The notes under the pieces: generated by a model
What the model saw: only the letters and a program-made list of their open reading frames with translations
What the model was told of the DNA's origin: nothing
Database searches by the model: none
Source of the DNA: Candidatus Omnitrophota bacterium
GTDB taxonomy: Bacteria > Omnitrophota > Omnitrophia > Omnitrophales > Aquincolibacteriaceae
Assembly: GCA_022711115.1 (NCBI GenBank)
Contig: JAKLFP010000009.1
Location: 4,622-68,621, forward strand
Reading direction: 5' to 3'
DNA length: 64,000 bases
Part shown: piece after piece, positions 3,196 through 53,800 of the stretch
Layout of the letters: each line of letters opens with the position of its first letter
Position numbering within the stretch: the stretch's first letter is position 1
Made by a program: the position numbers and the translations under genes

Positions 3196-4353
3196 TCAGG
3201 CCAAAGGTTTTAGGGTTATAAGATCATGCACAGAAACTGCCCGGACTTTTTTTGCCAAATCAAATGTCTTTTCACCGCAGTGGACGATACAGAGACGCGA
3301 AAGTTTTAAGTCCTTGAGCGCATGATACATCGAGGGAGTCATAGACGGAGCACTCGTCCGTTTGATCTCAAAACCATAGCGGAAGCGGCCCCGGCTGATG
3401 AGCAAATCAAGCTCACTGCCCGCATGGGTAGCCCAACTAAAACAATCTTCTCGATTCACTTTTAAAATCCGAATAAGCTGGCTTACGATGAATCCCTCCC
3501 ACGAAGCGCCGATTTTGGGATGGCGTTCCAGATCGATTTCATTTTTGATGCCGAGTAAAGTATGCAGGATCCCTGTGTCCGCAACATAAATTTTGGGCGC
3601 TTTCACCTGCCGTTTGGAAATATTTTCATGCCAAGCGGGCAATTGCCGTATCACAAAAGCACCGGTCAATATATCGAGATAATGCCTGACGGTCGTATCC
3701 GCCAATCCAAAAGCCCTCGCAAATTCCGACGAATTCCATCGCTGACCATGGTAATGGGCAATCATATGCCAAAATCTGCGAAGCGTCTCAGCCCGCACCG
3801 TAATCCCCAACTGCGGCAGATCTCTTTCAAGAAATGTTTTAATAAAATTGCGCCGCCACAGTTCTGACTGCGCAAGCGATTTTGCCAGATAAGAATCCGG
3901 GAAGCCCCCTCTCAACCACAGGCGATCCATAGACTGAATGCCGATTTCCTCAATGTAAAATTCACCCAGTTCATGATAGGCAATCCGGCCGGCCAGGCTT
4001 TCGGATGAAACCTTCAATAAATCCGGAGAGGCACTTCCAAGAATGAGAAACCGGCGAGGGATCTTAGCATCGTCGGCAAGCACTCGAAGCATCGGGTAGA
4101 GGGAGGGTTTTCTTTGAATTTCGTCAATCACCACAAGACCCTGCAAAGATTTTAAAGCAAGCATGGGGTCCGACAAACGAGCGACATCCTCGGGATTTTC
4201 CAAATCAAAATAATGCACCGGCCCCTTAAACGATCTCCCGATCTCTAAAGCGATCGTTGTTTTGCCCACTTGTCGTGCGCCCACAATTCCCACCACCGGG
4301 AATTGCCTTAATAACTTTAAGATGGAAGCCGTCTCACTTTTTCGCTTTATCAT
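3196..4353 (-). CDS. AAA+ ATPase with C-terminal DUF4143 (COG1373 family), copy 1. Start is probably an internal Met of the track ORF 3196..4455.
   Basis: Walker A GARQVGKTT near the N-terminus. C-terminal ELDLLI...FEIK looks like a PD-(D/E)xK nuclease motif. Paralogous to 19216..20358 and 22376..23608. Confidence 0.8.
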   Translation of the reverse strand: MIKRKSETASILKLLRQFPVVGIVGARQVGKTTIALEIGRSFKGPVHYFDLENPEDVARLSDPMLALKSLQGLVVIDEIQRKPSLYPMLRVLADDAKIPRRFLILGSASPDLLKVSSESLAGRIAYHELGEFYIEEIGIQSMDRLWLRGGFPDSYLAKSLAQSELWRRNFIKTFLERDLPQLGITVRAETLRRFWHMIAHYHGQRWNSSEFARAFGLADTTVRHYLDILTGAFVIRQLPAWHENISKRQVKAPKIYVADTGILHTLLGIKNEIDLERHPKIGASWEGFIVSQLIRILKVNREDCFSWATHAGSELDLLISRGRFRYGFEIKRTSAPSMTPSMYHALKDLKLSRLCIVHCGEKTFDLAKKVRAVSVHDLITLKPLA

Positions 4354-17307: not shown

Positions 17308-17533
17308 TCGGCGTGTTCACCGTTACGTCCCGCGCCCCGTGTCTCGTTCCCCGTTCCCCGTTCCCCGTTCCGGGTTACGAGCACCACGCGTCGGTGTGCC
17401 GGTGTCCTGCCTCTCGTCAGGGACGGTTCTTGTCGCAAGAACCGTCCCTAGCGCGTCCCTCGTCTCGTGTCCCGAATTTAAAGCTTCGGATTTTGGGCCT
17501 TCGTTACGAAGGAACGTATTGCCACCCTTCATC
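17308..17533. repeat. R1 MITE-like element, full copy A (226 bp)
   Basis: About 95% identical to 23689..23914. Core has a perfect 13-bp inverted repeat (GGGACGGTTCTTG / CAAGAACCGTCCC) plus a second hairpin (CCTTCGTTACGAAGG). Confidence 0.8.
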
Positions 17534-17659
17534 ACCTATTACCCACTTACCGGTCGCATTTCCTACTTCTGAATTCTTACTCCTTATTCCTTACTACATA
17601 ATTCTTTCTGTCACGCCCAGCGCCTGGAAACCAGATGGAAACCGTTTGATTTCCTATTG

Positions 17660-18764: not shown

Positions 18765-18768
18765 CAAA

Positions 18769-18820
18769 GGTGACAGTCACCCAAAAGTGACTGTCACTTC
18801 ACGCCGTTACATCATTCCGC
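18769..18820. repeat. REP2 palindromic element, copy 2
   Basis: See copy 1. Confidence 0.75.
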
Positions 18821-19203
18821 ATTCGGCGTTCGGCATTCCCTCGTCTCGCGCCCCGTGCCCCGTCTGTGGCATTTTCAATCAAAATTTTCCTGATCTTCAA
18901 CGTCTTCCCGGTCAGGATCTGTAAGGGGTCGATTACGTTCTTTCTGTTTTGTAAACCAACCAGACGCCCGGCCTCGGTCATGATTTTAATGTTTGTACCG
19001 TTAAGCTTCTCGACAGCGATCGTGTCTGGATCGTCAAAGACCCATTCGAAACCAGGGCTCACCCGGTCGACCGCGAGACGCACCTCCGGAGCACGCAAGC
19101 CGTACCGGCTGCCACATTGCGCAAACTGATCCTTATTGACCGGAAAGGTCTGGCGAAGGAACGGGCATTCGATCTTTGGGAAATCAGTCAGTGTTTCCAT
19201 CAT
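18799..19203 (-). CDS. Hypothetical protein, 134 aa; possibly a truncated ATP-dependent ligase-like nucleotidyltransferase
   Basis: VEKLNGTN resembles ligase motif I (KxNG). The ORF ends in the REP2 palindrome. Weak. Confidence 0.3.
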   Translation of the reverse strand: MMETLTDFPKIECPFLRQTFPVNKDQFAQCGSRYGLRAPEVRLAVDRVSPGFEWVFDDPDTIAVEKLNGTNIKIMTEAGRLVGLQNRKNVIDPLQILTGKTLKIRKILIENATDGARGARRGNAERRMRNDVTA

Positions 19204-19215: not shown

Positions 19216-20358
19216 TCAAAGGAGCTTACCGCTCCAAAGACGCTCGAGGAATTCTTGCCAGGGTAAGATTTCGATCCCTCCGGGGATGCTCCGGGGTTCC
19301 CTCTCAGTACAAACCACCACAGCCTTTTTTACGGGACCGTCTTCGAGAAGAGCTCGAAGGCCCCTCAGGTCCCCTTCATGAACTTTTCCGGACTTGATCT
19401 CGACCGCCGCTTCTTTTTCGCCAAGAATAAAATCCACTTCCTGTTTCGCTGCGGTACGCCAGTAGCGGATCGTCATCTCCGGCTCCCGGTAGGCCTGGTA
19501 CGCGCGCAATTCCATGAGGATGAAATGCTCGAACGCTTTTCCGAAATCGCTGTTACCCGGAACGGGATGCCGGCCGGCCAGAAACCCCGCGACGCCGACG
19601 TCAAAAAAATAAAATTTTTCGGCAAGAATCATGCGCCTGTTCTCTGACTTTGTCCAAGGGGGGATACGAAAACCCAAAAAAGTATCCTCGAGAATGTCAA
19701 AATACAAACGGACCGTCCGCTGCGAAACGCCGCACTCGCGGGCGATGTTGGTATAGTTCAGGATTTCGCTCGAAGTCAGCGTGGCGACCCGCAAAAAATC
19801 AGAAAAAGAAGGAATGCTCTGCGTCAGCGCTTCCGCGGCGATCTCTTCTTTCAGGTAATCCGCGACATAGGAGCGAAGATCCTCGGCGGGGCTCTCTGAA
19901 AGAAAATGGGGTGGCAGCATCCCGGTGAAGAGCGCCTTTTCCAATTGGAAGCCCGTGACCTCGGAAAAGGATAGCGGCAACATCACACGCCGCCACGCCC
20001 GTCCTCCCAACAAATTGGCATGCCCTCTTCGGAGCTTCCTGGCGCTGGATCCCGTCAAAAGAAATTGTGCTCCCCGTTCTTCGATCAACCACTGAACCTC
20101 GTCGAGAAGCCGCGGTATTTTTTGAACTTCGTCGATCACGATCATTTTTCCGTATTTTTCGTACCGCTCGCGCAAAAGCGCCGGTCGCGCCGCATATTCG
20201 GCAAAAACATCCGTTTGAAGCAGATCGATCAGCTTAACGCCTTTAAGGTGTTTGCGGATCCAAAAGCTTTTTCCTGCTTTACGCGGACCCCACAAAAAGC
20301 AGGATTTTCCCTTAGGGAGGTGAAGGTCGACTTGGCGCTCTATGATTTTTGTACTCAT
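19216..20358 (-). CDS. AAA+ ATPase with C-terminal DUF4143 (COG1373), copy 2
   Basis: Walker A GPRKAGKS. C-terminal EVDFILGEK...VEIK looks like a PD-(D/E)xK motif. Confidence 0.8.
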   Translation of the reverse strand: MSTKIIERQVDLHLPKGKSCFLWGPRKAGKSFWIRKHLKGVKLIDLLQTDVFAEYAARPALLRERYEKYGKMIVIDEVQKIPRLLDEVQWLIEERGAQFLLTGSSARKLRRGHANLLGGRAWRRVMLPLSFSEVTGFQLEKALFTGMLPPHFLSESPAEDLRSYVADYLKEEIAAEALTQSIPSFSDFLRVATLTSSEILNYTNIARECGVSQRTVRLYFDILEDTFLGFRIPPWTKSENRRMILAEKFYFFDVGVAGFLAGRHPVPGNSDFGKAFEHFILMELRAYQAYREPEMTIRYWRTAAKQEVDFILGEKEAAVEIKSGKVHEGDLRGLRALLEDGPVKKAVVVCTEREPRSIPGGIEILPWQEFLERLWSGKLL

Positions 20359-20533
20359 GGCGTTATATTATCGTGATAAATTTACAGTTGTCAACATATT
20401 ATTTTTCTTGTTTTTTGCCATATCTAGAGAGAACAGGAAGCTCAATACGTACCACGGGCCACGAGCCACGGGCCACGCCCCACGTTCCGCGTACCACGCA
20501 CCAAGCACCACGTACCAGGTACCATATCGTACC

Positions 20534-20613
20534 TAAGAAAAGACTACCTGATGGGAAACCAATTGTAAACCTTAAAATAAATAATTGTAAACCACGCCTC
20601 ACGCACTTGCGCC
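20534..20613. repeat. Direct repeat DR2b
   Basis: See DR2a. Confidence 0.85.
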
Positions 20614-20649
20614 GATCCGCCCTCACCCCGCGCCCCTCGCCCCGTTCCC

Positions 20650-20768
20650 CGTTCCGGGTTACGAGGACCACGCGTCGGTGTGCCGGTGTCCTGCCTCTCG
20701 TCAGGGACGGTTCTTGCGACAAGAACCGTCCCTAGCGCGTCCCTCGTCTCGTGTCCCGGGTTTCGGGA
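20650..20768. repeat. R1 element, partial copy C (core only)
   Basis: Same 13-bp IR core. Upstream of DUF4143 ATPase copy 2. Confidence 0.75.
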
Positions 20769-20787
20769 AGAGCATGAAACAGAAATG

Positions 20788-21531
20788 CTATCCGGGCAGA
20801 TGTTTTTCCAGCTCTGAGATTAACGTTTTGTTGAAGTTCTTGAGCAGGATGTGCTGGCTGACCGGAAGGAACTGCTTAAGTTCGCTTTTAAGATCGAGTC
20901 TCTGTTTTGACGCCACGCTCACTAACTTGGCCTTGATTGTTTTATCCTTACCAAACACCGGCCCGAACGCCATCCGGCTTCGCAGGATGAAATAAAGGTC
21001 ATAAAAATCCCTGGCCTTGCTGCGTGTCAAGGCAGCCTCGACTTTTTCTCTCACCAGATCCTGCTCGTTTAAATGATAAAGTGTATAGGCCGGCACAAAG
21101 TCGGATTGAACAAGAGCCGCGGTACCGCCTTTCCTTTGGGCCTTGTTGCGCAGGGACACTTCCATCTGAATCCCGCTTTGATATCCATCCCCCGACAACT
21201 GAAAGACCGCCAAGTAACCCCCTGATGTTTTTTTGGACTCCTCGATCACCGCTTGGATCCCTTGCGCTTCCATGCTCACTAAAACAGCTTCCACGACCCC
21301 CTCGATCTGGCGGATGGATATTCCGACCCCGTTAAAGTCCAGGTCCTCCGAAAAGCGCGGACTCCCATAAACAATCCGCAGAGCCGTGCCGCCTTTAAAA
21401 AGAAGTTTTTCGGAGTGCTTTTCCCGGTAGAGTTCCGAAAGAAAAATGTGCTGGAAGTATTCTTTCACCACATGATCAAGGGTCGTTTGATATTGATCCG
21501 TGATCTGACGCAGCGCTTGGACGCCGATCAT
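20788..21531 (-). CDS. abiEii: AbiEii-family nucleotidyltransferase toxin, pair 2
   Basis: FKGGTALRIVYGSPRFSEDLDFNG motif. 4-nt overlap with upstream AbiEi. Confidence 0.85.
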   Translation of the reverse strand: MIGVQALRQITDQYQTTLDHVVKEYFQHIFLSELYREKHSEKLLFKGGTALRIVYGSPRFSEDLDFNGVGISIRQIEGVVEAVLVSMEAQGIQAVIEESKKTSGGYLAVFQLSGDGYQSGIQMEVSLRNKAQRKGGTAALVQSDFVPAYTLYHLNEQDLVREKVEAALTRSKARDFYDLYFILRSRMAFGPVFGKDKTIKAKLVSVASKQRLDLKSELKQFLPVSQHILLKNFNKTLISELEKHLPG

Positions 21532-22133
21532 AAAACCTTCTCCGCTAGGATCATCAGGCTTTTTCTGTCGAAAAGTTTTGCGTAGCGCATCACCGTTTCA
21601 CCGTGAACCTTCCCTTTCAGATTCAGCCGTTCATTCAGTTGTTTTAGCTTGAGATCCACGAAGTAAAGATAATCCGCAAGCGCTTTTTCCGGCTCAGCGA
21701 TCAGGATCACACCGGCATCCGCCTTTAAGTTCCGGTATCCCGTAAAGGCCCTGCGCTTGATCCGCGAGTATTCGTAGGACCTGCCCTCCGCGGCAAATGT
21801 CCTTGTGATTTTTGTCGTGACGGAAGTCACGGAATAGACTGTCTCCGGGATCATTCGGTAATGAGCGAGCGCGTATTCCAGGGAAAGGTAGGATGGCGTA
21901 TAAAGGCGATTCGCGATCTCGGTCTCAGCCGGAAGATTCGAGCGGAGCGCGTAGAGGTTGTTTTTCAACTTAACAAAAAGGTCCGTTTTGTGGTCCTTGA
22001 TAAACTCTTGGGCCGCCCTGAGGGATATCCCAAAGACACGCCGGAATTCTTCAGGCGAAAAGAGCCGGACCTTCTTTTGAGTCAAGCTGTTTAAAACATC
22101 GATCGGTTTAAGCAATTTCATTTTTCGCTCCAT
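21528..22133 (-). CDS. abiEi: AbiEi-family antitoxin, pair 2
   Basis: N-terminal wHTH-like region. Position and coupling immediately upstream of AbiEii. Confidence 0.8.
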   Translation of the reverse strand: MERKMKLLKPIDVLNSLTQKKVRLFSPEEFRRVFGISLRAAQEFIKDHKTDLFVKLKNNLYALRSNLPAETEIANRLYTPSYLSLEYALAHYRMIPETVYSVTSVTTKITRTFAAEGRSYEYSRIKRRAFTGYRNLKADAGVILIAEPEKALADYLYFVDLKLKQLNERLNLKGKVHGETVMRYAKLFDRKSLMILAEKVL

Positions 22134-22161: not shown

Positions 22162-22449
22162 CTACCGCAAACCATCCTCCTTGACTATAAAAATCTCATG
22201 CCCGCCATCCCTCGCCCCGTTCCCCGTTCCGCTCCCCGTGTCTCCTGCCCCTTGCCCCGCGAATTCTCGCTTGTCCAGAATTCGCAGACGCATAATCAGC
22301 GCCGCGAGGATCCAGAGATAACTGGAGACTTCCTGCGAATCAAGCCGCGAGCCGAACATGTTGCTCAGAGCAAAATCAAAGCAGAGAGAAATGGCAATTA
22401 TGGACAGAATGGCCAATGAGGCCCATTTGCCTGGAATTTGAAACCACAA
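22162..22449 (-). pseudogene. Duplicated C-terminal fragment of the O-antigen-ligase-like gene 23889..25454
   Basis: Encodes ...SNMFGSRLDSQEVSSYLWILAALIMRLRILDKREFAGQGAGDTGS, identical to the C-terminus of the 521-aa ligase. A 135-bp nucleotide direct repeat (22231..22365) matches 23961..24095. Confidence 0.6.
22231..22365. repeat. Direct repeat DR3a (135 bp), partner at 23961..24095; flanks DUF4143 ATPase copy 3 plus R1
   Basis: About 95% identity. It is the 3' coding end of the ligase gene. Confidence 0.8.
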
Positions 22450-23608
22450 GCCCCGCGGGACTACGGCCTCCCGAGAGCTTAAGCCATGCTTTTAATGACG
22501 CTGCATGCTGGTCCGTCACCGTTGAAGACAATTTAAATTCTACGGGGAATATCTTGTTGGAAACTTCCACCAAGAGATCGACCTCGAAACCATCGATACT
22601 TCTCCAGAAATAAAGACTTGCCGGATCAAGAAAAGCTGAGAAGCGTTTGATGAACTGAGTCACACATGCCGTTTCAAAAAGCGCCCCGGCCATCGGTCCC
22701 TGCAAAAGGTGCTCCTCATCCTGCAATCCAACCAAATAACAGACAAGCCCCGTATCCATGAAATAACACTTTGGGGTCTTGACAATCCTTTTGCCGAAAT
22801 TTCGATGATAGGGATAAAGAAGGTGGATCAGAGAACTGGATTCCAAAAAAGACACCCAAGACTTGATGGTCGGAACCGTGGCACCTACGTCCCTTGCCAA
22901 AGTGGAATAATTCATTTCCTGCGCCGTGCGACTTGCCAGGAGCCTCACAAAACGCTCGAACTCATTCAAATTTGAAGTTCTTATATTGCCCCTCACATCC
23001 CGGTCAATATAACTTTGCAAATAACTTGAAAACCATAACTTTAAAGAAACTTTTTTCTTGGTAAAAATTTCCGGATACCCGCCACGCAAAAGCCATTGAC
23101 CGCAAGAAAGAGATTTATCTACCGGGGTGCCCGCGGAATATAAATGCCGGATGAAAGATTCCGCCGTCCTAAGCTTTACGCGTAGATGATGGTTCATTTC
23201 ACTCAAAGAAAATGGGAACAAGGTGAGAATCGCAACGCGCCCGGCCAAGGACTCCCCGACATTCCGCATCAATGGAAAAGCCTGCGAACCGGTTAAAATC
23301 CATTGCCCCGGTTTCCGGTCACGGTCAATGGCAGCTTTGATATAAGAAAGAAGCTGGGGAGCATGCTGAATTTCATCAATGATAACCGGATTCGGATATT
23401 TTGTTAAAAAACCGCGCGGATCATGAATCGCCAAGGAGCGGGTATCCATTTCATCCAGAGAAACATAACGATACCGCTCCCCTCCCGCTTTTTGAACCAA
23501 GGTGCTCTTCCCCGCTTGACGGGGACCAGTCACCACAACGGATGGGAACGTTTTTAAAGCCTTACCCAGAGACTCTTCGAGCAGTCGATGAATATACATG
23601 GCGACCAT
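22376..23608 (-). CDS. AAA+ ATPase with C-terminal DUF4143 (COG1373), copy 3
   Basis: Walker A GPRQAGKST. C-terminal FEVDLLVEVSNK...VEFK looks like a PD-(D/E)xK motif. Confidence 0.8.
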   Translation of the reverse strand: MVAMYIHRLLEESLGKALKTFPSVVVTGPRQAGKSTLVQKAGGERYRYVSLDEMDTRSLAIHDPRGFLTKYPNPVIIDEIQHAPQLLSYIKAAIDRDRKPGQWILTGSQAFPLMRNVGESLAGRVAILTLFPFSLSEMNHHLRVKLRTAESFIRHLYSAGTPVDKSLSCGQWLLRGGYPEIFTKKKVSLKLWFSSYLQSYIDRDVRGNIRTSNLNEFERFVRLLASRTAQEMNYSTLARDVGATVPTIKSWVSFLESSSLIHLLYPYHRNFGKRIVKTPKCYFMDTGLVCYLVGLQDEEHLLQGPMAGALFETACVTQFIKRFSAFLDPASLYFWRSIDGFEVDLLVEVSNKIFPVEFKLSSTVTDQHAASLKAWLKLSGGRSPAGLVVSNSRQMGLIGHSVHNCHFSLL

Positions 23609-23688
23609 TTTAAAGTACTACTTTAAAATTGCAATCCTTTTTTATCCCTCTTCATTTTCAAGGTCAACGCCTACGGCCTTGGTACCAT

Positions 23689-23914
23689 GTGCCGGCGTAT
23701 CGGCGTGTTCGCCGTTACGTCCCGCGCCCCGTGTCTCGTTCCCCGCTCCCCGTTCCGGGTTACGAGCACCACGCGTCGGTGTGCCGGTGTCCTGCCTCTC
23801 GTCAGGGACGGTTCTTGCGACAAGAACCGTCCCTAGCGCGCCCCCCGTCTCGTGTCCCGAATTTAAAGCTTCGGATTTTGGGCCTTCGTTAAGAAGGAAC
23901 GTATTGCCAACCAT
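23689..23914. repeat. R1 element, full copy B
   Basis: See copy A. Lies between DUF4143 ATPase copy 3 and the ligase 3' end. Confidence 0.8.
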
Positions 23915-25454
23915 CCTCACCTATTTTCCACGTCCCGCCCCCTGCCCCGTTCCCCGTCTCGCTCCCCGTGTCTCCTGCCCCTTGCCCCGCGAATTCTCGC
24001 TTATCGAGAATTCGCAAGCGCATAATCAGCGCCGCGAGGATCCAGAGATAACTGGAGACTTCCTGCGAATCAAGCCGTGAGCCGAACATATTGCTGAGAA
24101 GAAGCCCGAAAATACCTCCGAGCCAACCGAGCGCAAGCGCTTTTGCAAAAGGATCTTTGGTTGTGAGATAAAGTTTTCGCGTATTCAAAAAAATAAGCAG
24201 AATAATCCATAGGAAAATAACGAGCGCCGGGATCCCCATTTCTCCGGCAATAATAAGATAAGTATTGTGCGCATCCCACTTCCTATCGACTTCCAGATAG
24301 TATTTAATGACGATCGGAAAGAGCCCGTAGCCAACGCCGAATATTGGATTATCTTGGACCATCTGGAGCCCTGCACGCCAAATTTTCACCCGTTGCTGAG
24401 AGCTCGCGTCCAGATCGCCTTCATTGTATTCCTCTTTCAGGGTCTCGCTGTAATCACCCTGTGATTTCACGGTTTGACCCATTCGGTACTGGATCCCCGA
24501 GGGTAACAGTGTAGGATTCAAATAAACAAAGAAACCGAGCAAGAGAAGAAACATGAAAAGTATTTTATTCCGGAAAAAAGTGATCGCAAAAAGTCCCAGT
24601 GCGAATGCCAGATAACCGCCCCGCGAAAACGTGACCATGATGCCGCGGAAGCACAACAGAAACGGAATGAGCAAAAGCCAATACTTTGCTTTTTTCATAT
24701 TTAACAGAAAAAAACCAAACACAAGGAACATATAATAATTAAAAAATGCCGCCAACATATTGGGTTGTTCGCAAATCCCCCCGATCCTGGATTTTTCCAA
24801 ACTACCCATCTCCCCCTGATCGATATATGTCCAGATGGCCATCAATGCGGCCACGGTGGTGACGATCATCATGATAATCGATACATTTTTGATCGTGCCG
24901 CGATCCTTCACAGTATTTAATACCAGGAAGTAAAACAAAATCGGCGTGATCCATCGCTTATAATCGATCAAGATCCCGTTAATGCTCGAGATATCATAGA
25001 AACTGCCCCTGGCAATTGAAATAAAACCAATCAGGAGAAATAAAAAAACCGGCAAATTGAGCGATGTCCTCAGCCACAGCGGTTCGCCTTCCTTGTACCG
25101 GCCGCTCACCCAGACAAAGATCATGAAGATCATCAGGATATTGGTAAAGTTCAAAGCCGGCAAAAAATCACCGGCAAGCTCCCTGCTGAAAGGCATGTAG
25201 GCTACCAGGGCGTACGTCACAATCTCCGGCTGTTTGATTCCCTTGAACAACAAAAACATCCCGGCCACTGCGGTCATCCCCAAAATAAGGGCCTTGGGAA
25301 GTTGGACTTCCTTGATGATCAGATACGCGAAAAAGCACACCGCGCCCGTGACCCAGAGATAGGTTTTGCTATCGGGTTTTGGTAACGCTTTCTCACTCGC
25401 GTTCTTATTCATCGTTGTTCTTTCTGGTTCCACGATCCACGGCCCACGAACCAC
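23889..25454 (-). CDS. O-antigen ligase family (Wzy_C) membrane protein
   Basis: Many TM segments. FSRGGYLAFALGLFA and WDAHNTYL motifs, Gly-rich C-terminal tail. The first ~14 codons of the track ORF (a GTG start at 25452-54) lie in CGTGG heptad repeats, so the real start is probably the ATG about 25412 (MNKNASEK). Confidence 0.75.
   Translation of the reverse strand: MVRGPWIVEPERTTMNKNASEKALPKPDSKTYLWVTGAVCFFAYLIIKEVQLPKALILGMTAVAGMFLLFKGIKQPEIVTYALVAYMPFSRELAGDFLPALNFTNILMIFMIFVWVSGRYKEGEPLWLRTSLNLPVFLFLLIGFISIARGSFYDISSINGILIDYKRWITPILFYFLVLNTVKDRGTIKNVSIIMMIVTTVAALMAIWTYIDQGEMGSLEKSRIGGICEQPNMLAAFFNYYMFLVFGFFLLNMKKAKYWLLLIPFLLCFRGIMVTFSRGGYLAFALGLFAITFFRNKILFMFLLLLGFFVYLNPTLLPSGIQYRMGQTVKSQGDYSETLKEEYNEGDLDASSQQRVKIWRAGLQMVQDNPIFGVGYGLFPIVIKYYLEVDRKWDAHNTYLIIAGEMGIPALVIFLWIILLIFLNTRKLYLTTKDPFAKALALGWLGGIFGLLLSNMFGSRLDSQEVSSYLWILAALIMRLRILDKREFAGQGAGDTGSETGNGAGGGTWKIGEDGWQYVPS
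23961..24095. repeat. Direct repeat DR3b
   Basis: See DR3a. Confidence 0.8.
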
Positions 25455-25699
25455 GCACTTCGCACCAGACGGCAGTATGCACTCGGCAGCCTACGGAATG
25501 CTGATTGCTGAATTCGGAATGCAGAATACCGGGTCCGGGTGCTGAATTCCGCATTCGCCATTCGTCATTCCGCATTCGCCATTCGTCATTCCGCATTCCT
25601 CCGCCTCCTACTCCTGAATCCTTAGTCCTTAGTCCCGTTTCTCGTTCTTACTCCTTATTCCTTAATCCTGATCTGTCTTATTTCCTGATCTTTCCTTGG

Positions 25700-26578
25700 C
25701 TATTTCACGCACGAAAAAACCTGATTCAAACGCGAGAGCGCGGTTTCGAGGTTGAAGTTCTTGCGCTCTCCGGCAGTCAAGACCTCAAAGAGTTCTTCCT
25801 CGATCCGGCTGCTCATATCCCTGATCTCTTCGGGCTTTCTCCCCAGGTCCACCCGGTACTTGGCCAACTCCGTATCGCCCCCGTCTTCCGCAAGCTTCTT
25901 CCGGAAAAGTTCCAGAACCTCGGGATCTGCAAGATCAAAATTCTTCCGAAGAATAAAATCAAGGTCATAAAAATCACGGGGGGCGATAGTTTCACGGATG
26001 GCCGCGGCACGCAGTTTTTCAGCTACCAGCTCTTTGAGATCCAGACAACTCACCTCGCCACCATCAAACAAAAGTTTCCCGGTAAAGGGATGTATGAACT
26101 TATGTTGAACCTTATGTTTTCCGACAGGATAGAGCGGGTTAAACCGAAGACCGACCTCGAACTTGATCCTGGCCTCTTGCGGCAGAACCACGGAGGGGTA
26201 GATGAGATAAAAGACATATTGCCTGGACTCGTTCCGGCCGGGGTTCTCCGCGGTATCGAGTTTCATTCCAAACTGCGCCGCGAACTCCCCCATCTTTTCC
26301 TTGATGGGTTTCATGCACCGGCTCCGCACAGACTTGGTCACCTTCCCGTCCGGCAACCGCATGCTGAAATCGAGATCTTCGCTTAAACGATAATAGGAAT
26401 AATAAACTTTGTTGAGACATGTGCCGCCTTTGAATATGAGGTCTGAGCTGAGCTCCTGAAGACGCGAAAGCGCAAGCGTCAGGTAATAATCCTTTTCGAT
26501 CAGCGGGAGAATGAATCCTGTCCGCGCGGAAGTTTGTTTCAGGACATTCAGGAAATCCTCATTATTTTCGTGGATCAC
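25700..26578 (-). CDS. abiEii: AbiEii-family nucleotidyltransferase toxin, pair 3
   Basis: FKGGTCLNKVYYSYYRLSEDLDFSM motif. Confidence 0.85.
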   Translation of the reverse strand: MIHENNEDFLNVLKQTSARTGFILPLIEKDYYLTLALSRLQELSSDLIFKGGTCLNKVYYSYYRLSEDLDFSMRLPDGKVTKSVRSRCMKPIKEKMGEFAAQFGMKLDTAENPGRNESRQYVFYLIYPSVVLPQEARIKFEVGLRFNPLYPVGKHKVQHKFIHPFTGKLLFDGGEVSCLDLKELVAEKLRAAAIRETIAPRDFYDLDFILRKNFDLADPEVLELFRKKLAEDGGDTELAKYRVDLGRKPEEIRDMSSRIEEELFEVLTAGERKNFNLETALSRLNQVFSCVK

Positions 26579-27362
26579 CGACGATCACTCTCCATGTTGT
26601 GCTCAGGTCGCCTTTGCGGGAACCGGTCAGGGAACTGATCGCTGTTTTCTGAACGCTTTTGACGAGAGACCTGAGGACCTTCTGATCGATGCCAAGTCTC
26701 TCCAGAGTCACTCCGATCCGTTTGCGAGTCGTGACATTCGGAAAGCGCGATGCCATGTCCACAAGCTTCGCGACATCGCATTGCTTCCGCTTGACGACCT
26801 CCTTAAGGATCCGGACCGCCGCCGCGGCTCCTCCGACCGGTTTATTAAAATAAACAAGATCGACGAGAGTCCGCTCCCTGGAACTGACCGGAACGGACGC
26901 GCCCTGAACCGTAATTTTTTCGATCCCATACATGCGTTTTTCCGGAACCTTGACGAATTTATAAGCGATGCCGCAGATCGTCTTTTCTTTACAAAGCGTT
27001 GTATTGATCACATAGACCGTCTGGAAGATCTGTTCGGTGAGCCTGTAATAGTTGAACATCGTGGAATAGCCGAGGTAGTAGTTCCCCCGAGGAAGGAAAA
27101 CGGCCGGGATCAGGAACTCATTTACCCGTGTCCCGGTTGGAATCAAATCGAGTGGTGTAAAAACATAGACTCCGTTCTTGATGGGCGTGAGCACTCGCTT
27201 CTGCTTCAGGGTATAGACGAACTGTTTCCGGTATTTAAACCCGTCCGGAAAGAATTTGTCTATCTCGCTTGCCGTAATGATCGTTTTCTTCTCGTAAGTA
27301 AGGCGAGCGATAAATTCAGCTTCCTTAGGCCCAAAACCGCTGATTATATTTTTGTTTATCAT
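26562..27362 (-). CDS. abiEi: AbiEi-family antitoxin, pair 3
   Basis: Position upstream of AbiEii with overlap. N-terminal HTH-like region. Confidence 0.75.
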   Translation of the reverse strand: MINKNIISGFGPKEAEFIARLTYEKKTIITASEIDKFFPDGFKYRKQFVYTLKQKRVLTPIKNGVYVFTPLDLIPTGTRVNEFLIPAVFLPRGNYYLGYSTMFNYYRLTEQIFQTVYVINTTLCKEKTICGIAYKFVKVPEKRMYGIEKITVQGASVPVSSRERTLVDLVYFNKPVGGAAAAVRILKEVVKRKQCDVAKLVDMASRFPNVTTRKRIGVTLERLGIDQKVLRSLVKSVQKTAISSLTGSRKGDLSTTWRVIVGDPRK

Positions 27363-27377: not shown

Positions 27378-27680
27378 TTACTTTAACATAACGAATTTAC
27401 AATAAAAATCTAGCACGCCGGTCGCATTTGTCAACGGCAAAAAATCACCGGCAAGCTCCCGGCTGAAAGGCATGTAGGCCACCAAGGCGTACGTCACGAT
27501 CTCCGGCTGTTTGATTCCCTTAATAAGCAGAAAAATACCGGACACCACTGTTAATCCCACAATAAGCATTTTCGGAAGCTGTACTTCCTTAATGATCAGA
27601 TAAGCAAAAAAACAAACCGCGACTGTCACCCAAAGGTACGTATTTTTCCCTTCAGAATTGGCAACGGAATTAGTGGTCAT
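27378..27680 (-). pseudogene. Duplicated N-terminal fragment of the O-antigen-ligase-like gene 23889..25454
   Basis: Encodes KNTYLWVTVAVCFFAYLIIKEVQLPK...IVTYALVAYMPFSRELAGDFLP, about 85% identical to the ligase N-terminus. About 250 bp of nucleotide similarity to 25165..25457. Confidence 0.6.
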
Positions 27681-28770
27681 GATTTTTTAGAATCGAATCG
27701 TAAAGAGCTTCGATTTCCTTGGCTTTTTTGAACATATCAAATTTCTCAACCGCATATTTGCGCCCATTTTCACCCATCAATTTAATGCGGCCAGGATCTT
27801 TGAGCAACGCTACAATCTGCTGAGCCATGACTGCCGAATCACGGTATGGGATCACAAAACCGCTTTGGCTTCTTTCAATAAGCTCCCGAACCGGGCCGAC
27901 ATCAGTAGCAATAATGGGTTTAAAAGCAATCATAGCTTCTATGATCGTCCGCCGTAAGCCTTCCGGAAGATACGAAGCATCCACTACAAGATCTAAATTC
28001 GAAATAACAGCCATGATATCCTTTTGCCAGCCCAAAAAACTGACATGATCTCCAAGTCCTTCATCAACAACTTGCCGTTGCAATTCAGCCTGATATCCCG
28101 GGGATTCCGCCGCTTCCTCCCCCACAATAAAAAAATGCACCTCTGGCTCCTGTTTGACAACTTCTGCTGCGGCCTTGATAAAATATTCGTGGCCCTTCCC
28201 TCGCGTAAGCCGACTGCAAATGCCCACTTTCTTTCCCGAAAGGTTCATCGCAGGCGCAATTGCGCGTGTGGCCGTCACATTTACGTCAAAAGGATCATAC
28301 GAAACTGTGATTTTGTGAGGCGGCAAACCCTCCTTGATATAAAAGTCCCTGCCTGCTTCTGAAATCGCAATGAAATGATATATTAATTTCGCCAAGAACT
28401 TTTCCTTGCGCGTGAGAGACCTCATGCTGCGCAAATGACAAACAAACGGCTTGTTCGTTATCTTGGCGGCAAAAATGCCTGCATTTTGAGAATCAATGTC
28501 ATTATTGAGATGAATTAAATCGATTTTCTTTTCGTTTATGATCCTTGCAAGTCTAAAAACATTTGTAAAAATACTCATAAAAGTTGGTCCGTCGGGCGTT
28601 CGCAGGATCTCAACATCACGCCAATCAAAGCCATAAAGATCCGCGTCAGGATGCGTAAAAACAAGAATGGGGCGATACTTTGTTCGGTCAAGTGCATCAA
28701 GTAAGTATTTGAGACTCAATGCGGACCCACCACGCCCCATTCCTGTTTCTATATAAAGGATATTAATCAT
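27670..28770 (-). CDS. Glycosyltransferase family 4
   Basis: GT4 C-terminal motif region (EGLRRTIIEAMIAFKPIIATDVGPVRELIE). Confidence 0.85.
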   Translation of the reverse strand: MINILYIETGMGRGGSALSLKYLLDALDRTKYRPILVFTHPDADLYGFDWRDVEILRTPDGPTFMSIFTNVFRLARIINEKKIDLIHLNNDIDSQNAGIFAAKITNKPFVCHLRSMRSLTRKEKFLAKLIYHFIAISEAGRDFYIKEGLPPHKITVSYDPFDVNVTATRAIAPAMNLSGKKVGICSRLTRGKGHEYFIKAAAEVVKQEPEVHFFIVGEEAAESPGYQAELQRQVVDEGLGDHVSFLGWQKDIMAVISNLDLVVDASYLPEGLRRTIIEAMIAFKPIIATDVGPVRELIERSQSGFVIPYRDSAVMAQQIVALLKDPGRIKLMGENGRKYAVEKFDMFKKAKEIEALYDSILKNHDH

Positions 28771-38632: not shown

Positions 38633-39400
38633 TCAATCCTCCGGAAGGAACGGCCCCAAACGCGTGACCATTTTTTCGATCATCGCATCGGACACCGTTT
38701 TTGCGTACACAATCCTTTCCAATTCGGTTTCTTTGTCTCTTTGAGCCCTTTGCCAATTTGCCTTTACATTCGAGTGCTTGATCGGGTTTCGGATTTCTTT
38801 GGCTGCGATCAACTTTCGCACCTCCGCCGCATCAAATTTGAATTGGTCGACAAGAAGCACCAGGTCATAAAAATCCCTATACCGGGCACGATCATTGGCT
38901 GCCCTTATTTTTTCAGCACAAATTTCGCGTTCATCCATGACCTTCACCCGGGCTTGAACGCCCCAGGCATTACGATAGTCCTTACTTTTTGCCGGCAATA
39001 CGACATTTTGTTTAAAATCGATCTCCACCTTCAGGGAGTTGGGCAATCCCAGCGGGCCGGCGTATTTCAACCGATCGATCTTAATCGTCGCACCGGAGAA
39101 ATATTCTTTCTTTACTTCCAAAAAATCATGGCCCAGAAAAACGGATTTGACTTCTTCCAGGGTGATGCGCGGATCCAGCGATGTGAAATCCAGGTCCTCC
39201 GAAAACCGGGTCTGCTCCAGATAACAATGATGAATGGCCGTCCCGCCCTTGAAGACCAGTTTTCCGGCCAGCGGGGATCCGTAAATGATCTTCGCAACCA
39301 CCGCTAAAAGATAATCTTTTTCAGCGACGGACAACTGATATTTCAGGGACCGTTTATTCAGGATGCTAAGCTGGGTTTTGGTCAATAAGACGATCATCAA
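38633..39400 (-). CDS. abiEii: AbiEii-family nucleotidyltransferase toxin, pair 4
   Basis: FKGGTAIHHCYLEQTRFSEDLDFTS motif. Confidence 0.85.
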   Translation of the reverse strand: MMIVLLTKTQLSILNKRSLKYQLSVAEKDYLLAVVAKIIYGSPLAGKLVFKGGTAIHHCYLEQTRFSEDLDFTSLDPRITLEEVKSVFLGHDFLEVKKEYFSGATIKIDRLKYAGPLGLPNSLKVEIDFKQNVVLPAKSKDYRNAWGVQARVKVMDEREICAEKIRAANDRARYRDFYDLVLLVDQFKFDAAEVRKLIAAKEIRNPIKHSNVKANWQRAQRDKETELERIVYAKTVSDAMIEKMVTRLGPFLPED

Positions 39401-40151
39401 AATACAGTCTCCATTTCGAATTGAACTGCTTTGCTTCCGGCGTCATCCTGCTAAAACTGGATTTTTTTTGTATTTTTCGCTCTAGCTCACCGGTGGGGAT
39501 CCCGAGACGGTCAAGAAAAAAACCGGTCTGCCGGATGACCTGATAATTGAATTTGGACGCATACTCTTTTAGCCGGTCAAAATCGATCTCCTTGCGGTAT
39601 TGCCGGAGCTTTTCCCATACCAGACTGGCGGCGTATCCCGACGGATTAAAATACAGCAGGTCCAGCATGGCCTTTTCAATACACGCAACCTGGAGGCTTC
39701 CCAAGTCGGACCGCTCGGGAGAAAATCCAAAAAAGAGCGCCTTCTTCACGCTAAAAAACCGTATCTCCCCGCCCTGGATCCTGTATCTTCCGGGTTTCTC
39801 AAAAGTGACTGCGCCAACGCTTTTGATCATCTGATCAAAGAGCCCGTGATACTGCAGCGCCCTTTCAAATGAAATATAGCAGTTTTTTTTGATGGCTTGG
39901 GCGATGGCATCCAGCGAGACGTCATTCGCCCCTCTGCTGCCAACATCCGTCATGACGACAAAAAGCCCCCGCTTGATCCGGATCAGCCAGCCAAGCTTTG
40001 TAAGAAGCGCAACGCGGTTGCGAATGACCGGATCCGATGTTTGCCCGGACAAAATTTCCCTGATTTGGGCAAAGGTCACAATGCGGCCATGGCGAGCGGT
40101 GATTTCCTCAAGTAATTCGTTTGTCTTATGAGACAGTATTGTTTTTTTCAT
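39366..40151 (-). CDS. abiEi: AbiEi-family antitoxin, pair 4
   Basis: N-terminal wHTH (GRIVTFAQIREIL...LTKLGWLIRIKRGLFVV). Upstream of and overlapping AbiEii. Confidence 0.8.
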   Translation of the reverse strand: MKKTILSHKTNELLEEITARHGRIVTFAQIREILSGQTSDPVIRNRVALLTKLGWLIRIKRGLFVVMTDVGSRGANDVSLDAIAQAIKKNCYISFERALQYHGLFDQMIKSVGAVTFEKPGRYRIQGGEIRFFSVKKALFFGFSPERSDLGSLQVACIEKAMLDLLYFNPSGYAASLVWEKLRQYRKEIDFDRLKEYASKFNYQVIRQTGFFLDRLGIPTGELERKIQKKSSFSRMTPEAKQFNSKWRLYFDDRLIDQNPA

Positions 40152-40650: not shown

Positions 40651-40651
40651 C

Positions 40652-41802: not shown

Positions 41803-42633
41803 CTACGCCTTCTGGGCGTAAAGAAGTTCATCGCCTACTTCCTTGATCATGTCGCGGCTGATCTGCTGGGCTTCCGAGACATAGCCCGTCAGAAGCGCGG
41901 AATCGCACAAGTGATTGATCACCCGCGGGATCCCCCCGGACATCTGGTAAATGGCCTGGAGCGCTTCCTCGGTAAAAAGATTTTCATAAGAACGTCCGTT
42001 GGACCTCGCGGCCTCCAAACGGTGCAGGATATACTTGCGCGCATCGGCTTCGCTGAGCGGATGAATGTGATACTGGACCGCCACGCGCTGGCGCAACTGG
42101 CGCAGGGACGGCATCTCGAGTTTCTTGCGGAGCTCGGGCTGGCCGATCAAAATGATCTGCAGGAGTTTTTCCTTTTCGGTCTCCAGATTGGAAAGCATCC
42201 GGACCTCTTCCAGACAGGCCGGCGAAAGATTTTGCGCCTCGTCGATAATCAGGACATCGTTCTGGTTTTTCTGGAGCTGCTGGATCAGGTAGGTGTTCAG
42301 CTGGATCAGCAGTTTTTCCTTCGAGCCGTTGACATATTGCACGCCGAGATCGTCCAGGATCATGGTAATGACGCCCTTGGGACTTAAGTAGGTGTTAAAG
42401 ATCGATACGGTCTGGACATTCCGGTCCACGGAACGCAGGAGCCGGCGCGCGACCGTGGTCTTGCCGCAGCCGACCTCGCCGGTCAGGACAATAAAACCCT
42501 TGCGTTCGCCGATGGCGTAAAGCAGCGCGTTGAGCGCGGTCTGATGATATTCGGAAGCGAAAAAAAACGACGGGTCCGGCGTCTGGTTGAAGGGTTTCTC
42601 TTTGAATCCGTAAAATTGATTATACATAAGCAA
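41803..42633 (-). CDS. ExeA-like AAA ATPase (XrtA/PEP-CTERM-system-associated ATPase type)
   Basis: GFIVLTGEVGCGKTT Walker A. VLIIDEAQNL Walker B. About 276 aa, typical of TIGR03015-type EPS-locus ATPases. Confidence 0.7.
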   Translation of the reverse strand: MLMYNQFYGFKEKPFNQTPDPSFFFASEYHQTALNALLYAIGERKGFIVLTGEVGCGKTTVARRLLRSVDRNVQTVSIFNTYLSPKGVITMILDDLGVQYVNGSKEKLLIQLNTYLIQQLQKNQNDVLIIDEAQNLSPACLEEVRMLSNLETEKEKLLQIILIGQPELRKKLEMPSLRQLRQRVAVQYHIHPLSEADARKYILHRLEAARSNGRSYENLFTEEALQAIYQMSGGIPRVINHLCDSALLTGYVSEAQQISRDMIKEVGDELLYAQKA

Positions 42634-51926: not shown

Positions 51927-53111
51927 TCAGATCTCAGTGAATTTAAGTGCTGTCTTCGTCGCAGCATCCGTTCGGTGCGAATAATGACGCAGGCACACCT
52001 TTATGTCCCGATGTCCCGTAATCCCCATAACGTTTTTCGGGGCAACCCCCTGATCCAGCAATTCCGTAACCACACACTTCCTGAAGACCTTGGATGTGAT
52101 CTCACGTCCCAGGATCTTCAAGGATGCTTTCTTGAGATAATTATTAAAGCGGTCGTAGGACAGCCGTTTGCCTTTGGAATTAGGGAATAGGCAAGTCGCG
52201 TTCGGATTGTAATAGTGCAGCAGGACATCACGTAACCCCCTGTCGTCCTTGACCAGGGTGGAGTGCAGCTCCTCCTTGTTCTTTCGATCCCCCGCTTCGA
52301 CACGAATGGCGATCGAAACAGCATTTTCAAAAGCGATATTCTTGGTCTTGATGGATAAGATCTCACAAATCCGCCAACCGAGTCGCATCAGGAAATACAA
52401 CACCCCCCAATATACAGGCTTGTCCTTCTTAACAAATTCCAGCAATTTCCGCTTTTCATCCTTAGCAATCGGGGTATACGGGGTTTCTCGCATTCTGGGA
52501 ACCTTCAAATCAGACAATTCGGTCACAACGTCACTTCCGCAATAACCCGCTCGGTAGAACCGCTTCATATTGGATTTAAGCACTTGTAGCTCAGTCCGCC
52601 AGCCCTTTTCACGATTCAATTTAATCGTTACATACCGTTGGAAATCCAGCAGTGCACCTCTTGGCAGCTGACTGATTCTCTGCAAGTCGGGATACTCCTG
52701 TCGGAGAAAATCGATGAAGTGCTGCCACCCACTGAGCGATCGGTTGATGGTCTTGCGTCGGCAGGCGTCGGCAACCATCATCTGTCTAAGTTCATCCTTC
52801 AATGCCTCGAACGACTGGCTCTGTTTGGATCCGCTTTGAAAACTCTTTTCACTTCGGAGGGTTCTCAGCCATTCGTGACGCTGGAATTCCGCCTCTCGCT
52901 GGGATTTCTTCTCCAGATGAATGGTCTTGTATTTCCTATCGCCCGATGCATCATAGCCATCAAGCAGATAGACATGCAGGCCAATCTTGTCAGTGTTTCG
53001 GTACCGAACACCCTTAATTTGCTTCGCCAACTTCCCCTCCTGCAACAGCCATTCCCCGCTCTTTAACCCACCGCCTGAAGTCAGCGACTGGCGAAAGGAG
53101 TCGTTTCCCAA
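51927..53111 (-). CDS. Tyrosine-type site-specific recombinase/integrase
   Basis: C-terminal catalytic region ITGHRDIKVCLRHYSH (H-x-x-R ... Y). Domain size typical of phage integrases. Confidence 0.8.
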   Translation of the reverse strand: MGNDSFRQSLTSGGGLKSGEWLLQEGKLAKQIKGVRYRNTDKIGLHVYLLDGYDASGDRKYKTIHLEKKSQREAEFQRHEWLRTLRSEKSFQSGSKQSQSFEALKDELRQMMVADACRRKTINRSLSGWQHFIDFLRQEYPDLQRISQLPRGALLDFQRYVTIKLNREKGWRTELQVLKSNMKRFYRAGYCGSDVVTELSDLKVPRMRETPYTPIAKDEKRKLLEFVKKDKPVYWGVLYFLMRLGWRICEILSIKTKNIAFENAVSIAIRVEAGDRKNKEELHSTLVKDDRGLRDVLLHYYNPNATCLFPNSKGKRLSYDRFNNYLKKASLKILGREITSKVFRKCVVTELLDQGVAPKNVMGITGHRDIKVCLRHYSHRTDAATKTALKFTEI

Positions 53112-53226
53112 GCCTGATCAGCGGACAACCAGACGACTTTTTCCACCGACTCGACTGGATTGTATTCGGTCGAATCCGCAAGATTTTCGCAATCTCTTCA
53201 ACGCTTAAGAACTCCGATTCAATCAT
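53014..53226 (-). CDS. Excisionase/AlpA-like HTH DNA-binding protein
   Basis: LSVEEIAKILRIRPNTIQSSRWKK HTH. 70 aa. Directly upstream of the integrase. Confidence 0.5.
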   Translation of the reverse strand: MIESEFLSVEEIAKILRIRPNTIQSSRWKKSSGCPLIRLGKRLLSPVADFRRWVKERGMAVAGGEVGEAN

Positions 53227-53227
53227 T

Positions 53228-53800
53228 TCAATCTACCCCCTGTGTTGGACTTCGTTTCCCAAGTTTCCTGGATTCTTTATCACGCCCTGCATACCTCAAA
53301 CAATAACCTGAAGTTGCCCTCTTTCGCTTATCCCCAGCCCCGACAGGCCGCCCCAACCGCCGCCCACTTGCCCGTGCACGATCCAATCCTCCAAGCACCC
53401 GTGAACGGATGATTTCTCTTTCGAGTTCCGCAAATATGCCGAGGAGTTGCCAAAATGCTCGGTTCATCGGACTGTCGTTTGAGGTGTCGATGCCATCGGC
53501 GATTGAGACAAGACGAACGTTTCGATTCTTAAACTCTGCCAGCAAATTCAGAAGGTGCTTGAGTGATCGGCCAAGCCGATCCAACTTAGTTAAAAGAATC
53601 GTTCTGATCGATCCCAATCTGACTTCTTTTAAGAGTAGATCCAACTGCGGCCTAGAATCCCTCACCCCACTGATCCCGACATCAGAATAGATCTTGAATT
53701 TTGAGATCCCTTGATTCGAGCAGTAGTCTTTCAGCATCTTCACTTGGGCAGCAACGTCCTGTTTTACCGTGCTTACCCTACAATACAATGCAGTGCTCAC
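53228..53800 (-). CDS. Serine recombinase (resolvase/invertase family)
   Basis: N-terminal ALYCRVSTVKQD catalytic-serine motif. C-terminal HTH. Confidence 0.85.
   Translation of the reverse strand: MSTALYCRVSTVKQDVAAQVKMLKDYCSNQGISKFKIYSDVGISGVRDSRPQLDLLLKEVRLGSIRTILLTKLDRLGRSLKHLLNLLAEFKNRNVRLVSIADGIDTSNDSPMNRAFWQLLGIFAELEREIIRSRVLGGLDRARASGRRLGRPVGAGDKRKRATSGYCLRYAGRDKESRKLGKRSPTQGVD

Follow-up and report, generated by a model that had tools for sequence, protein, structure and literature searches.

How does a gene come to stand between two copies of the end of its neighbor? The question is raised by a 64,000-nt stretch of DNA (hereafter the window) from a Candidatus Omnitrophota metagenome-assembled genome. 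In it, a gene on the minus strand encoding an AAA_14 ATPase joined to a DUF4143 PD-(D/E)xK-type domain (DUF4143 copy 3, 22376..23608), which belongs to the candidate defense family PDC-S01, is enclosed by a direct repeat of the 3' end of an O-antigen-ligase/polymerase-like gene, ligase2. A sequence-only reading had taken this repeat, together with similar ones around two further DUF4143 genes of the window (copies 1 and 2), as the mark of an unrecognized mobilization mechanism tied to this gene family. We compared the window with fetched relative loci and contigs, which carry labels of the type L001-L075 where they must be told apart. On balance we consider it probable that the copy-3 repeat is the displaced end of an older ligase allele, left behind by sequential displacement through homology-anchored recombination at a cassette hot spot of a polysaccharide cluster.

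The whole region is encoded on the minus strand. Read 5' to 3', ligase2 (25454 to 23889) is followed by R1d, one copy of a dispersed repeat (23937 to 23718), a promoter block, DUF4143 copy 3 (23608 to 22376), a partial copy of the ligase end (22372 to 22162) and an AbiEi/AbiEii pair (22133 to 20788). The full-length ligase2 open reading frame (ORF), 23889..25454, matches Pfam Wzy_C at 3e-21, and gene callers place its start at 25412 (507 aa). Comparison of positions 22231-22365 with 23961-24095 revealed 129/135 identical bases (95.6%), in agreement with the 135-bp pair of about 95% identity described from the sequence. Ungapped extension of the repeat gives 161 nt at 93% (22209-22369 versus 23939-24099), and BLAST aligns 169 nt at 92.9% identity with an E value of 9e-65, a match far beyond chance. 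The longest run of identical bases is 59 nt. The left copy (23939..24099, minus strand) corresponds to codons ~453-505 in the 3' part of ligase2, and the pair encloses R1d and the intact AAA_14-DUF4143 gene. The arrangement was recovered, 100% identical, in at least four independent assemblies (SPAdes ERZ761563, JGI Ga0209507, MEGAHIT ERZ27257456 and a 95-kb contig with NCBI among its sources); since these come from different samples and assemblers, it is not an assembly artifact. Several short contigs (L003-L007) end at the repeats, which would suit a repeat-induced chimera or a collapsed strain mixture. However, the complete arrangement is present on contigs of 14-95 kb, 100% identical across assemblers and samples, and the probability of a metagenome assembly artifact is negligible.

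The right copy (22162..22372, minus strand) diverges in its tail and ends in a stop codon of its own. It begins 4-6 nt past the stop codon of DUF4143 copy 3, and 28 nt separate it from AbiEi. The first 28 codons of the ORF that contains it, 22162..22449, lie over the DUF4143 3' end in a different reading frame. This ORF had been said to encode the exact C-terminal 40 residues of the ligase, which needs correcting: the exact match covers residues 453-498 (46 aa) of the 521-aa ligase ORF, and beyond residue 498 the tails differ, reading GTGNGARDGGHEIFIVKEDGLR in ORF 22162..22449 and ETGNGAGGGTWKIGEDGWQYVPS in ligase2, each followed by a stop. Weak DNA similarity runs on to both stop codons, and both copies are therefore whole 3' ends. 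Because the right copy keeps its own stop and its AbiE neighbor, the only clearly non-native joint is the one at the DUF4143 stop codon. The AbiE pair on this side (20788..22133, minus strand) consists of AbiEii (20788..21531), which has a Pfam match, and an AbiEi-like partner of 201 aa (21528..22133), which has none; it was probably the original downstream neighbor of the allele from which the right copy derives.

The substitutions between the two copies bear on their origin. Across 52 aligned codons there are 9 synonymous changes and 1 non-synonymous change (dS, the synonymous divergence, 0.28; dN, its non-synonymous counterpart, 0.009; dN/dS ~0.03), and the 36 conserved codons hold 7 synonymous and 0 non-synonymous changes. 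A dead fragment born by insertion should gain mostly non-synonymous changes. As nearly all changes are synonymous, the copies diverged within working ligase genes, as different functional alleles do. Duplication of a target would predict identical copies that decay neutrally, and the copies here are 92-96% identical with a strong synonymous bias. The codon pattern thus suggests that the ligase-end fragment is a relic of another functional allele and not an in-place duplicate.

The other end of the gene has also left a relic. A 100-aa ORF at 27378..27680 (minus strand, repeat D4) was found by BLASTP to be 77% identical to ligase2 residues 29-114 (dS 0.94, dN 0.10; dN/dS ~0.11). This 5' relic is equidistant from ligase2 and from its orthologs in L064 and L062: it is 81.2% identical to ligase2, compared with 82.2% between ligase2 and its ortholog in another genome, and it has residues in common with the L062 ortholog P0126 that differ in ligase2. 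It overlaps the upstream glycosyltransferase gene (27670..28770) by 11 nt, and the intact ligase of the syntenic, clean L062/L063 cluster overlaps its upstream glycosyltransferase gene by 4 nt. A query with its first 82 residues for an intact allele returned only the relic itself, the word index being too coarse for so short a query. Between the 5' relic and full-length ligase2 lies a second AbiEi/AbiEii pair (25700..27362, minus strand), a non-DUF4143 cassette with a like scar. Taken in order, the relic (27378-27680), this pair (25700-27362) and ligase2 form the mirror image of the copy-3 arrangement, with other cargo. A possible third relic, a ligase 3' tail at ~17500..17620 (approximate bounds, minus strand), lies just upstream of another R1 copy, R1b. 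In a tail alignment of the window, L062 and L064, it has GTAAGAATTCAGAAGTAGGA in common with L062 and AATAGGTGA.GA.GG.TGGCAATACGTTCCTTC in common with ligase2. The sequence is array-like, and we assign this putative relic of ~120 nt with moderate confidence. The relic-type sequences of the ligase alleles read MTTNSVANSEGKN at the N-terminus and GARDGGHEIFIVKEDGLR in the tail. The locus therefore holds an intact gene and partial copies of its own ends (the 3' relic, the 5' relic and possibly the tail relic), with a series at the 3' side that runs from the full ligase through the ~210-nt relic to the possible ~120-nt one.

Ligase2 has orthologs in the syntenic clusters of L062 (77% identical) and L064 (81%), and the slot between the ligase and the next glycosyltransferase gene differs in content among the three genomes. 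It holds a zeta-toxin-like gene alone in L062 (1.2 kb), HTH-Fic, an IVP gene and an AbiE pair in L064 (4.3 kb), and 8.5 kb of DNA in the window. The AbiE pair of L064 (6131-7715) is 90% identical in DNA to window positions 38633-40221 (pair 38633..40151), which lie in a different slot, whereas backbone genes are 78-83% identical; this match suggests a recent exchange of cassettes. The variable slot content and the higher identity of the AbiE match indicate that these intergenic slots are exchange hot spots for small cassettes. The types found at them are AbiE pairs, Fic, 23S-IVP/Avd-like genes, ORF6N and DUF4143 ATPase-nucleases. The 3' segment of the ligase gene is 84-87% conserved between genomes, compared with ~78-80% for the whole gene, and together with the 59-nt identical run it would provide a good homologous anchor.

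The simplest course of events that could yield this arrangement begins with incoming DNA from a related strain that would have carried the ligase 3' end (or the whole ligase), then R1, then the DUF4143 gene. On one side it would have recombined through the strongly conserved ligase sequence. On the other side an illegitimate joint directly behind the DUF4143 stop would have connected it to the resident ligase at codon 453, pushing the resident 3' end and its AbiE neighbor downstream. Earlier and later rounds may have left the 5' relic and possibly the shorter third tail relic. The process would amount to homology-facilitated illegitimate recombination, or sequential displacement; both the mechanism and the direction of events are what we infer from the present arrangement. 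At the joint, a possible microhomology, CT(G/C)AGCAA(C/T), is seen between the downstream end of the cassette and the ligase. The same displacement model has been used to explain type VI secretion system (T6SS) effector-immunity arrays and rhs 3' relics (PMC5361080). Like the displacement arrays of rhs C-terminal modules, orphan modules of contact-dependent inhibition (CDI) systems and T6SS (PMC5361080), the locus studied here has an intact gene followed by 3' relics of its own kind from other alleles, small accessory genes interleaved between them, slot content that differs between close relatives, and a homologous anchor with an illegitimate joint as the proposed route. It differs from them in that the anchor is a Wzy_C ligase and not a toxin gene, the cargo consists of defense or toxin-antitoxin genes and not of immunity genes, a 5' relic is present as well, and the host is an uncultured member of the Omnitrophota.

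The other two DUF4143 genes of the window have the same architecture, as had been claimed for them. Copy 1 (PDC-S01; 3196..4353, minus strand), which has its own TTGACA-17-TATAGT promoter, is bracketed by repeat D8 (3108-3195 and 4471-4558; 88 nt, 93% identical), made up of 48 nt of leader and the first 13 codons of a PcRGLX-like gene. Copy 2 (PDC-S01; 19216..20358, minus strand) is bracketed, together with an ORF at 18799..19203, by repeat D7 (18685-18764 and 20534-20613; 80 nt, 100% identical), which is the promoter region of a HATPase/DUF4325 gene and ends at the ATG of that gene. The three DUF4143 proteins are only 25-29% identical pairwise, and the genes are therefore old paralogs and not recent copies. 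This ancient divergence supports the earlier proposal of three independent insertions, as do, for copy 1, the L062 cluster, in which the ligase1 ortholog abuts the PcRGLX-like gene and so presents an empty site, and, for copy 3, the ligase-to-glycosyltransferase slots of L062 and L064, which hold different cassettes and no DUF4143 gene; for copy 2 the proposal is drawn solely from the variable slot.

A census was run across other genomes and metagenomes, not within the source genome, with repeats scored as tight when both copies lay within 600 nt. Relatives of copy 3 were located at 16 loci in genomes and 36 in metagenomes, and most of these had no flanking direct repeat. Outside the window, tight repeats accompanied 2/34 DUF4143 genes and 2/121 other genes (p = 0.21). 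For the wider positives L018/L054 and L015, a composite transposon or flanking paralogs were considered and rejected; the repeats lie in opposite-strand flanking ORFs that match no Pfam model and encode no transposase. The sequence-only reading had made its mechanism depend on other DUF4143 copies in the genome also having flanking duplications. Across genomes, seven of nine close Omnitrophota relatives of copy 3 (L010, L026, L027, L030, L065, L067, L068) lacked repeats, and so did 32/34 wider members when tight repeats were counted. Nor are the scars specific to DUF4143, since a ligase 5' relic lies beside an AbiE pair in the window and an AbiE pair lies between DUF1016 relics in L028. With AbiE cassettes bearing like scars and tight repeats being rare around DUF4143 genes outside the window, the comparative data do not support a mobilization mechanism tied to the family.

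The remaining two of the nine close relatives, L028 and L029, deserve description. The upstream PEMT-like gene of L029 has its final 67 nt repeated, 100% identical, downstream of the cassette. An IS5-like element, recognized by eye, follows directly after the DUF4143 stop codon there (4619-5557); its terminal inverted repeats read GAGCCTATCCT(A/G)ATATCAA, and its transposase is frameshifted. L028 contains 3-4 copies of the 5' end of a DUF1016 gene (2669-2786, 4787-4960, 6979-7028, 10794-10967); the AbiE pair lies between the first two relics, and the DUF4143 cassette is fused directly to the second. The relic ends vary, at ~codon 23 and at codon 50. Overall, L028 presents a multi-cassette array between gene-start relics, comprising the AbiE pair, the DUF4143 cassette, a degraded DUF4143 gene, Fic and other ORFs.

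Several observations weigh against displacement as the source of the copy-3 repeat. The position of the L028 and L029 cassettes beside the relic of a neighboring gene end is not predicted by a pure hot-spot model. In the window all three DUF4143 ORFs are tightly bracketed, compared with 3/55 other ORFs plus the AbiE pair (post hoc p ~6e-4). The D7 repeat of 80 nt and the L029 repeat of 67 nt are 100% identical and fit duplication in place equally well. Even for copy 3, a later allelic replacement of the working ligase after an in-place duplication would give the same synonymous-only pattern. Exact look-ups with DUF4143 copy 3, AbiEi, HATPase/DUF4325 and ligase1, together with the cluster members of ligase2 and both relics, recovered no other arrangement, all matches being 100% identical; public data represent a clonal population, and neither a donor or recipient allele nor an empty site for copy 3 was found in it.

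The true start of DUF4143 copy 3 is likely the ATG at 23599, giving 407 aa. Pfam searches detected AAA_14 (5e-28, 98.1 bits against a cut-off of 27) and DUF4143 (4.5e-46, 157 bits against a cut-off of 28.1), and copies 1 and 2 also score above both gathering thresholds. The PADLOC PDC-S01 profile PDLC04790 matched copy 3 at 1.1e-110, copy 1 at 1.4e-80 and copy 2 at 2.5e-55. Alignment of 21 sequences including all three paralogs revealed that G25, G30, K31, D75, E76, E339, D341, E354 and K356 are invariant; these residues constitute the Walker A and B motifs and an E-x-D...E-x-K nuclease motif. An AlphaFold 2 model of copy 3 (predicted local distance difference test score of 90.6) has a predicted fold resembling the archaeal Walker ATPase 2QEN, ORC/Cdc6 and the STAND ATPases Apaf-1 and Avs5, with a C-terminal part that appears similar to the Can2 nuclease. 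No transposase or integrase fold is listed among the 50 best PDB matches of this model, and a PDB sequence search with the copy-3 ATPase gave no match. PDC-S01 has been described as a fusion of an ATPase with a PD-(D/E)xK domain that ranks fourth in frequency among defense candidates (PMC12988326). Validation is pending for most such candidate systems, PDC-S01 not being singled out (PMC12988326), and DUF4143 is listed among PD-(D/E)xK families of unknown function (PMC3424549). The window proteins resemble the single-gene PADLOC candidate PDC-S01 (AAA_14 with DUF4143; COG1373) in both Pfam domains, the Walker A and B motifs and the D...ExK motif, and at the protein level nothing sets them apart from it. 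The family is most plausibly an ATP-driven nuclease, and copy 3 a candidate for an anti-phage function.

With a promoter and an ORF of its own, copy 3 makes up a self-contained unit of one gene. A consensus scan located the promoter block of the cassette at 23607..23648 (minus strand), which contains GGGATAAAAAA, the promoter elements TTGCAA-16-TAAAAT and a palindrome, TTTTAAAGT-N3-ACTTTAAAA, with 9-bp arms. Its transcript is probably leaderless or nearly so. Proteins 84-90% identical to copy 3 are encoded on five other metagenome contigs (L026-L030) in unrelated gene contexts. Their DNA similarity to the window starts ~25-45 nt before the first ATG and ends at the stop codon, and the promoter block is the only upstream DNA that they conserve. 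The six orthologous cassettes have no shared termini or terminal inverted repeats; the homology among them comprises the promoter and the ORF only.

With these data in hand, the alternatives to displacement can be compared. The one closest to the original claim is a dedicated insertion, in which the DUF4143 ATPase-nuclease, acting itself or in trans, would make widely staggered cuts whose repair duplicates 70-210 bp of the target gene end. Such an activity would fit the bracketing of 3/3 DUF4143 genes in the window against 3/55 other ORFs, the relics of unrelated neighbor genes beside the orthologs in L028 and L029, the conserved nuclease motif, and the stop codons of copies 1 and 3, which lie within 0-6 nt of the right repeat. 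It would also account for the homology among the 84-90% identical relatives stopping at the promoter and exactly at the stop codon, although limits this sharp are expected anyway once synonymous sites are saturated. However, the copy-3 repeat diverged under purifying selection, AbiE cassettes have like scars, 7/9 close relatives and 32/34 wider members lack tight repeats, terminal inverted repeats or conserved ends are missing, and the L028 relic boundaries vary at one target (~codon 23, codon 50). The ORC/STAND-like fold with a Can2-like nuclease, and the absence of a transposase or integrase from the 50 best PDB matches, also argue against it. Insertion linked to the family is therefore unlikely. 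In a wider form of the idea, DUF4143/PDC-S01 genes and perhaps other defense cassettes would spread in the Omnitrophota by an unrecognized route that copies 70-210 bp of a neighbor's gene end, with the target surviving and no transposase or integrase involved. The cassettes would then be minimal mobile units, and the 3/3 bracketing in the window and the relics beside the L028 and L029 orthologs would be their traces. We consider this quite improbable; if true, a gene-end-copying insertion tied to one of the commonest candidate defense families would be a new kind of mobility. Insertion sequences of the IS1634 group make very long target duplications, and the locus resembles their products in having direct repeats of tens to hundreds of bp around a 1.3-1.8-kb insert. 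It differs from them in lacking a transposase and terminal inverted repeats and in the divergence of the repeat copies under selection; DUF4143 is the sole ORF within the copy-3 repeat-bounded unit, which contains neither a transposase nor an integrase.

Recombination between the repeats themselves offers another route. Here RecA recombination between the two repeat copies would excise a 1.73-kb unit (ligase 3' end, R1 and DUF4143) as a circle. In related strains one crossover at the 3' end of the ligase gene would reintegrate it in the manner of Campbell, making the repeats hybrids of donor and recipient alleles. The 59-nt identical run is ample for RecA, and a circle derived from another allele would be expected to show synonymous divergence. 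One contig, L003 (ERZ795054 NODE_66441, 1696 nt), is circularly permuted (DUF4143, then a hybrid repeat, then R1) and is 34 nt short of a 1730-nt circle; its hybrid repeat is relic-type before the 59-nt run and ligase-type after it. However, its coverage is 2x, and the usual largest k-mer of metaSPAdes is 55: if k = 55 was used, the switch lies in a run longer than k and a graph mis-join explains it equally well. L003 was consequently not accepted as proof, since it is undecidable between a circle or tandem and a mis-join. All longer contigs show the linear arrangement, and a circle would leave the origin of the first repeat and the equidistant 5' relic unexplained; we regard it as a doubtful candidate. 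Integrative elements are also known to accrete in tandem at gene ends, as in arrays of the CIME/ICE type (cis-mobilizable and integrative and conjugative elements) and in tycheposon islands at tRNA genes. Applied to this locus, a site-specific integrase acting in trans would insert non-autonomous cassettes whose attachment (att) site is a copy of the gene end, each integration regenerating the gene and leaving a partial copy. In L028, the repeated gene ends that separate one cassette from the next resemble att-site arrays; the window encodes a tyrosine integrase and a resolvase at 51927..53800, and an integrase fragment adjoins the ortholog in L026. The locus is like CIME/ICE arrays in that partial copies of the target end stand between the cassettes and one side retains the intact gene. 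In contrast to them, no integrase lies inside or beside any bracketed unit of the window, the nearest being ~28 kb away, and the three targets are ends of unrelated protein genes. Repeat boundaries also differ between events at the same target (L028), and the copies are long and divergent where att sites are near-identical, with no short identical core evident beyond the 59-nt run. Accretion of this kind is very unlikely. Displacement of an older ligase end thus remains our preferred explanation.

The sequence-only reading had joined R1 to DUF4143 copy 3 as one enclosed unit. The enclosure by the ligase-end repeat stands, but R1 does not belong to the unit. Copies of this dispersed repeat measure 110-220 nt and contain a perfect 13-bp hairpin; four occur within 20 kb, three of them preceding DUF4143 genes. 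R1d in its extended form (23718..23937, minus strand; D1/D3 families) comprises the last 16 ligase codons and the 3' untranslated region, the R1 core (23752-23859) with the 13-bp hairpin, and a G-rich heptamer array. The ligase tail and the CCAAAATCCGAA..TAAATTC motif are native to the ligase 3' end in L064. R1b (17333..17552, minus strand) is 90% identical to R1d over 220 nt and precedes a DUF6788-like ORF rather than a DUF4143 gene; its 3-nt hairpin loop is reverse-complemented (CGA versus TCG), as if the hairpin had flipped. R1c (20617..20836, minus strand) lies between AbiEii and the second D7 copy (D7b), upstream of DUF4143 copy 2, and R1a (4634-4741) lies upstream of copy 1. An nhmmer search (E <= 1e-3) of the loci L001-L064 found R1 only in contigs of this genome. 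The window has no Rfam match at gathering score, 23600-24000 has none at E <= 1, and the four copies show no compensatory base pairs. From its absence in relatives, the lack of shared termini and the lack of an Rfam match, R1 is a repeat scattered in this genome rather than a component of the DUF4143 unit. A resemblance to a hammerhead ribozyme seen by eye (CUGACGAG...CGAAAC) was rejected, since neither stem III nor the GAAA core agrees with that ribozyme.

Tandem arrays of 7-nt units (TCTTACT, ATTCCGC, ACGTACC, CGTTCCC and others) occupy most intergenic sites of the window, including 4536-4612, 15463-15491, 17345-17371, 20447-20524, 25546-25599, 35538-35561, 40586-40658, 41748-41787 and 46641-46700, and they occur in L062 and L064 too. 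ORF ends read into these arrays, among them the tails of the ligases and codons 1-13 of the PcRGLX-like gene. The heptamer-array repeats D2, D5, D13 and D14 were considered as insertion scars and left uncounted, since they recur upstream of many genes, in L062 as well. The 134-aa ORF beside copy 2 (18799-19203) contains EKLNGTN, which resembles nucleotidyl-transferase motif I of RNA ligases; it had no Pfam or PADLOC match, and since it reads into heptamer repeats at its end it probably represents a fragment of a gene. A 55-nt repeat (12382-12436 and 18766-18820, 98% identical) with two GTGAC(A/T)GTCAC palindromes precedes two unrelated genes and could act as an operator or a terminator. At copy 1, the contigs L074 and L075, from two assemblies, both end at window position 4208 inside the gene, which hints at a repeat or a variant. 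Elsewhere in the window, a 133-aa ORF (42620-43021) repeats the N-terminus of a ParA/AAA_31 kinase-like gene (40652-41707), and these copies bracket an AAA_22 ATPase gene (41803..42633), a backbone gene also found in L062. A separate island (51927-63909) encodes a tyrosine integrase, a resolvase, an N6_N4_Mtase DNA methylase, a ResIII helicase-nuclease and a Schlafen/AlbA_2 ATPase.

The locus is a further instance of two known things, a PDC-S01 candidate and a displaced gene-end relic at a hot spot. Phage pressure acts on both surface polysaccharides and defense genes and could cause the two to be exchanged together. If the displacement reading is correct, the locus would be a clear case, from outside the toxin field and in an uncultured phylum, of polysaccharide genes being swapped together with anti-phage and toxin-antitoxin cassettes. 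Displaced gene ends would then record the order of such events, and the balance of synonymous and non-synonymous divergence could separate target duplication from the relic of an allele.

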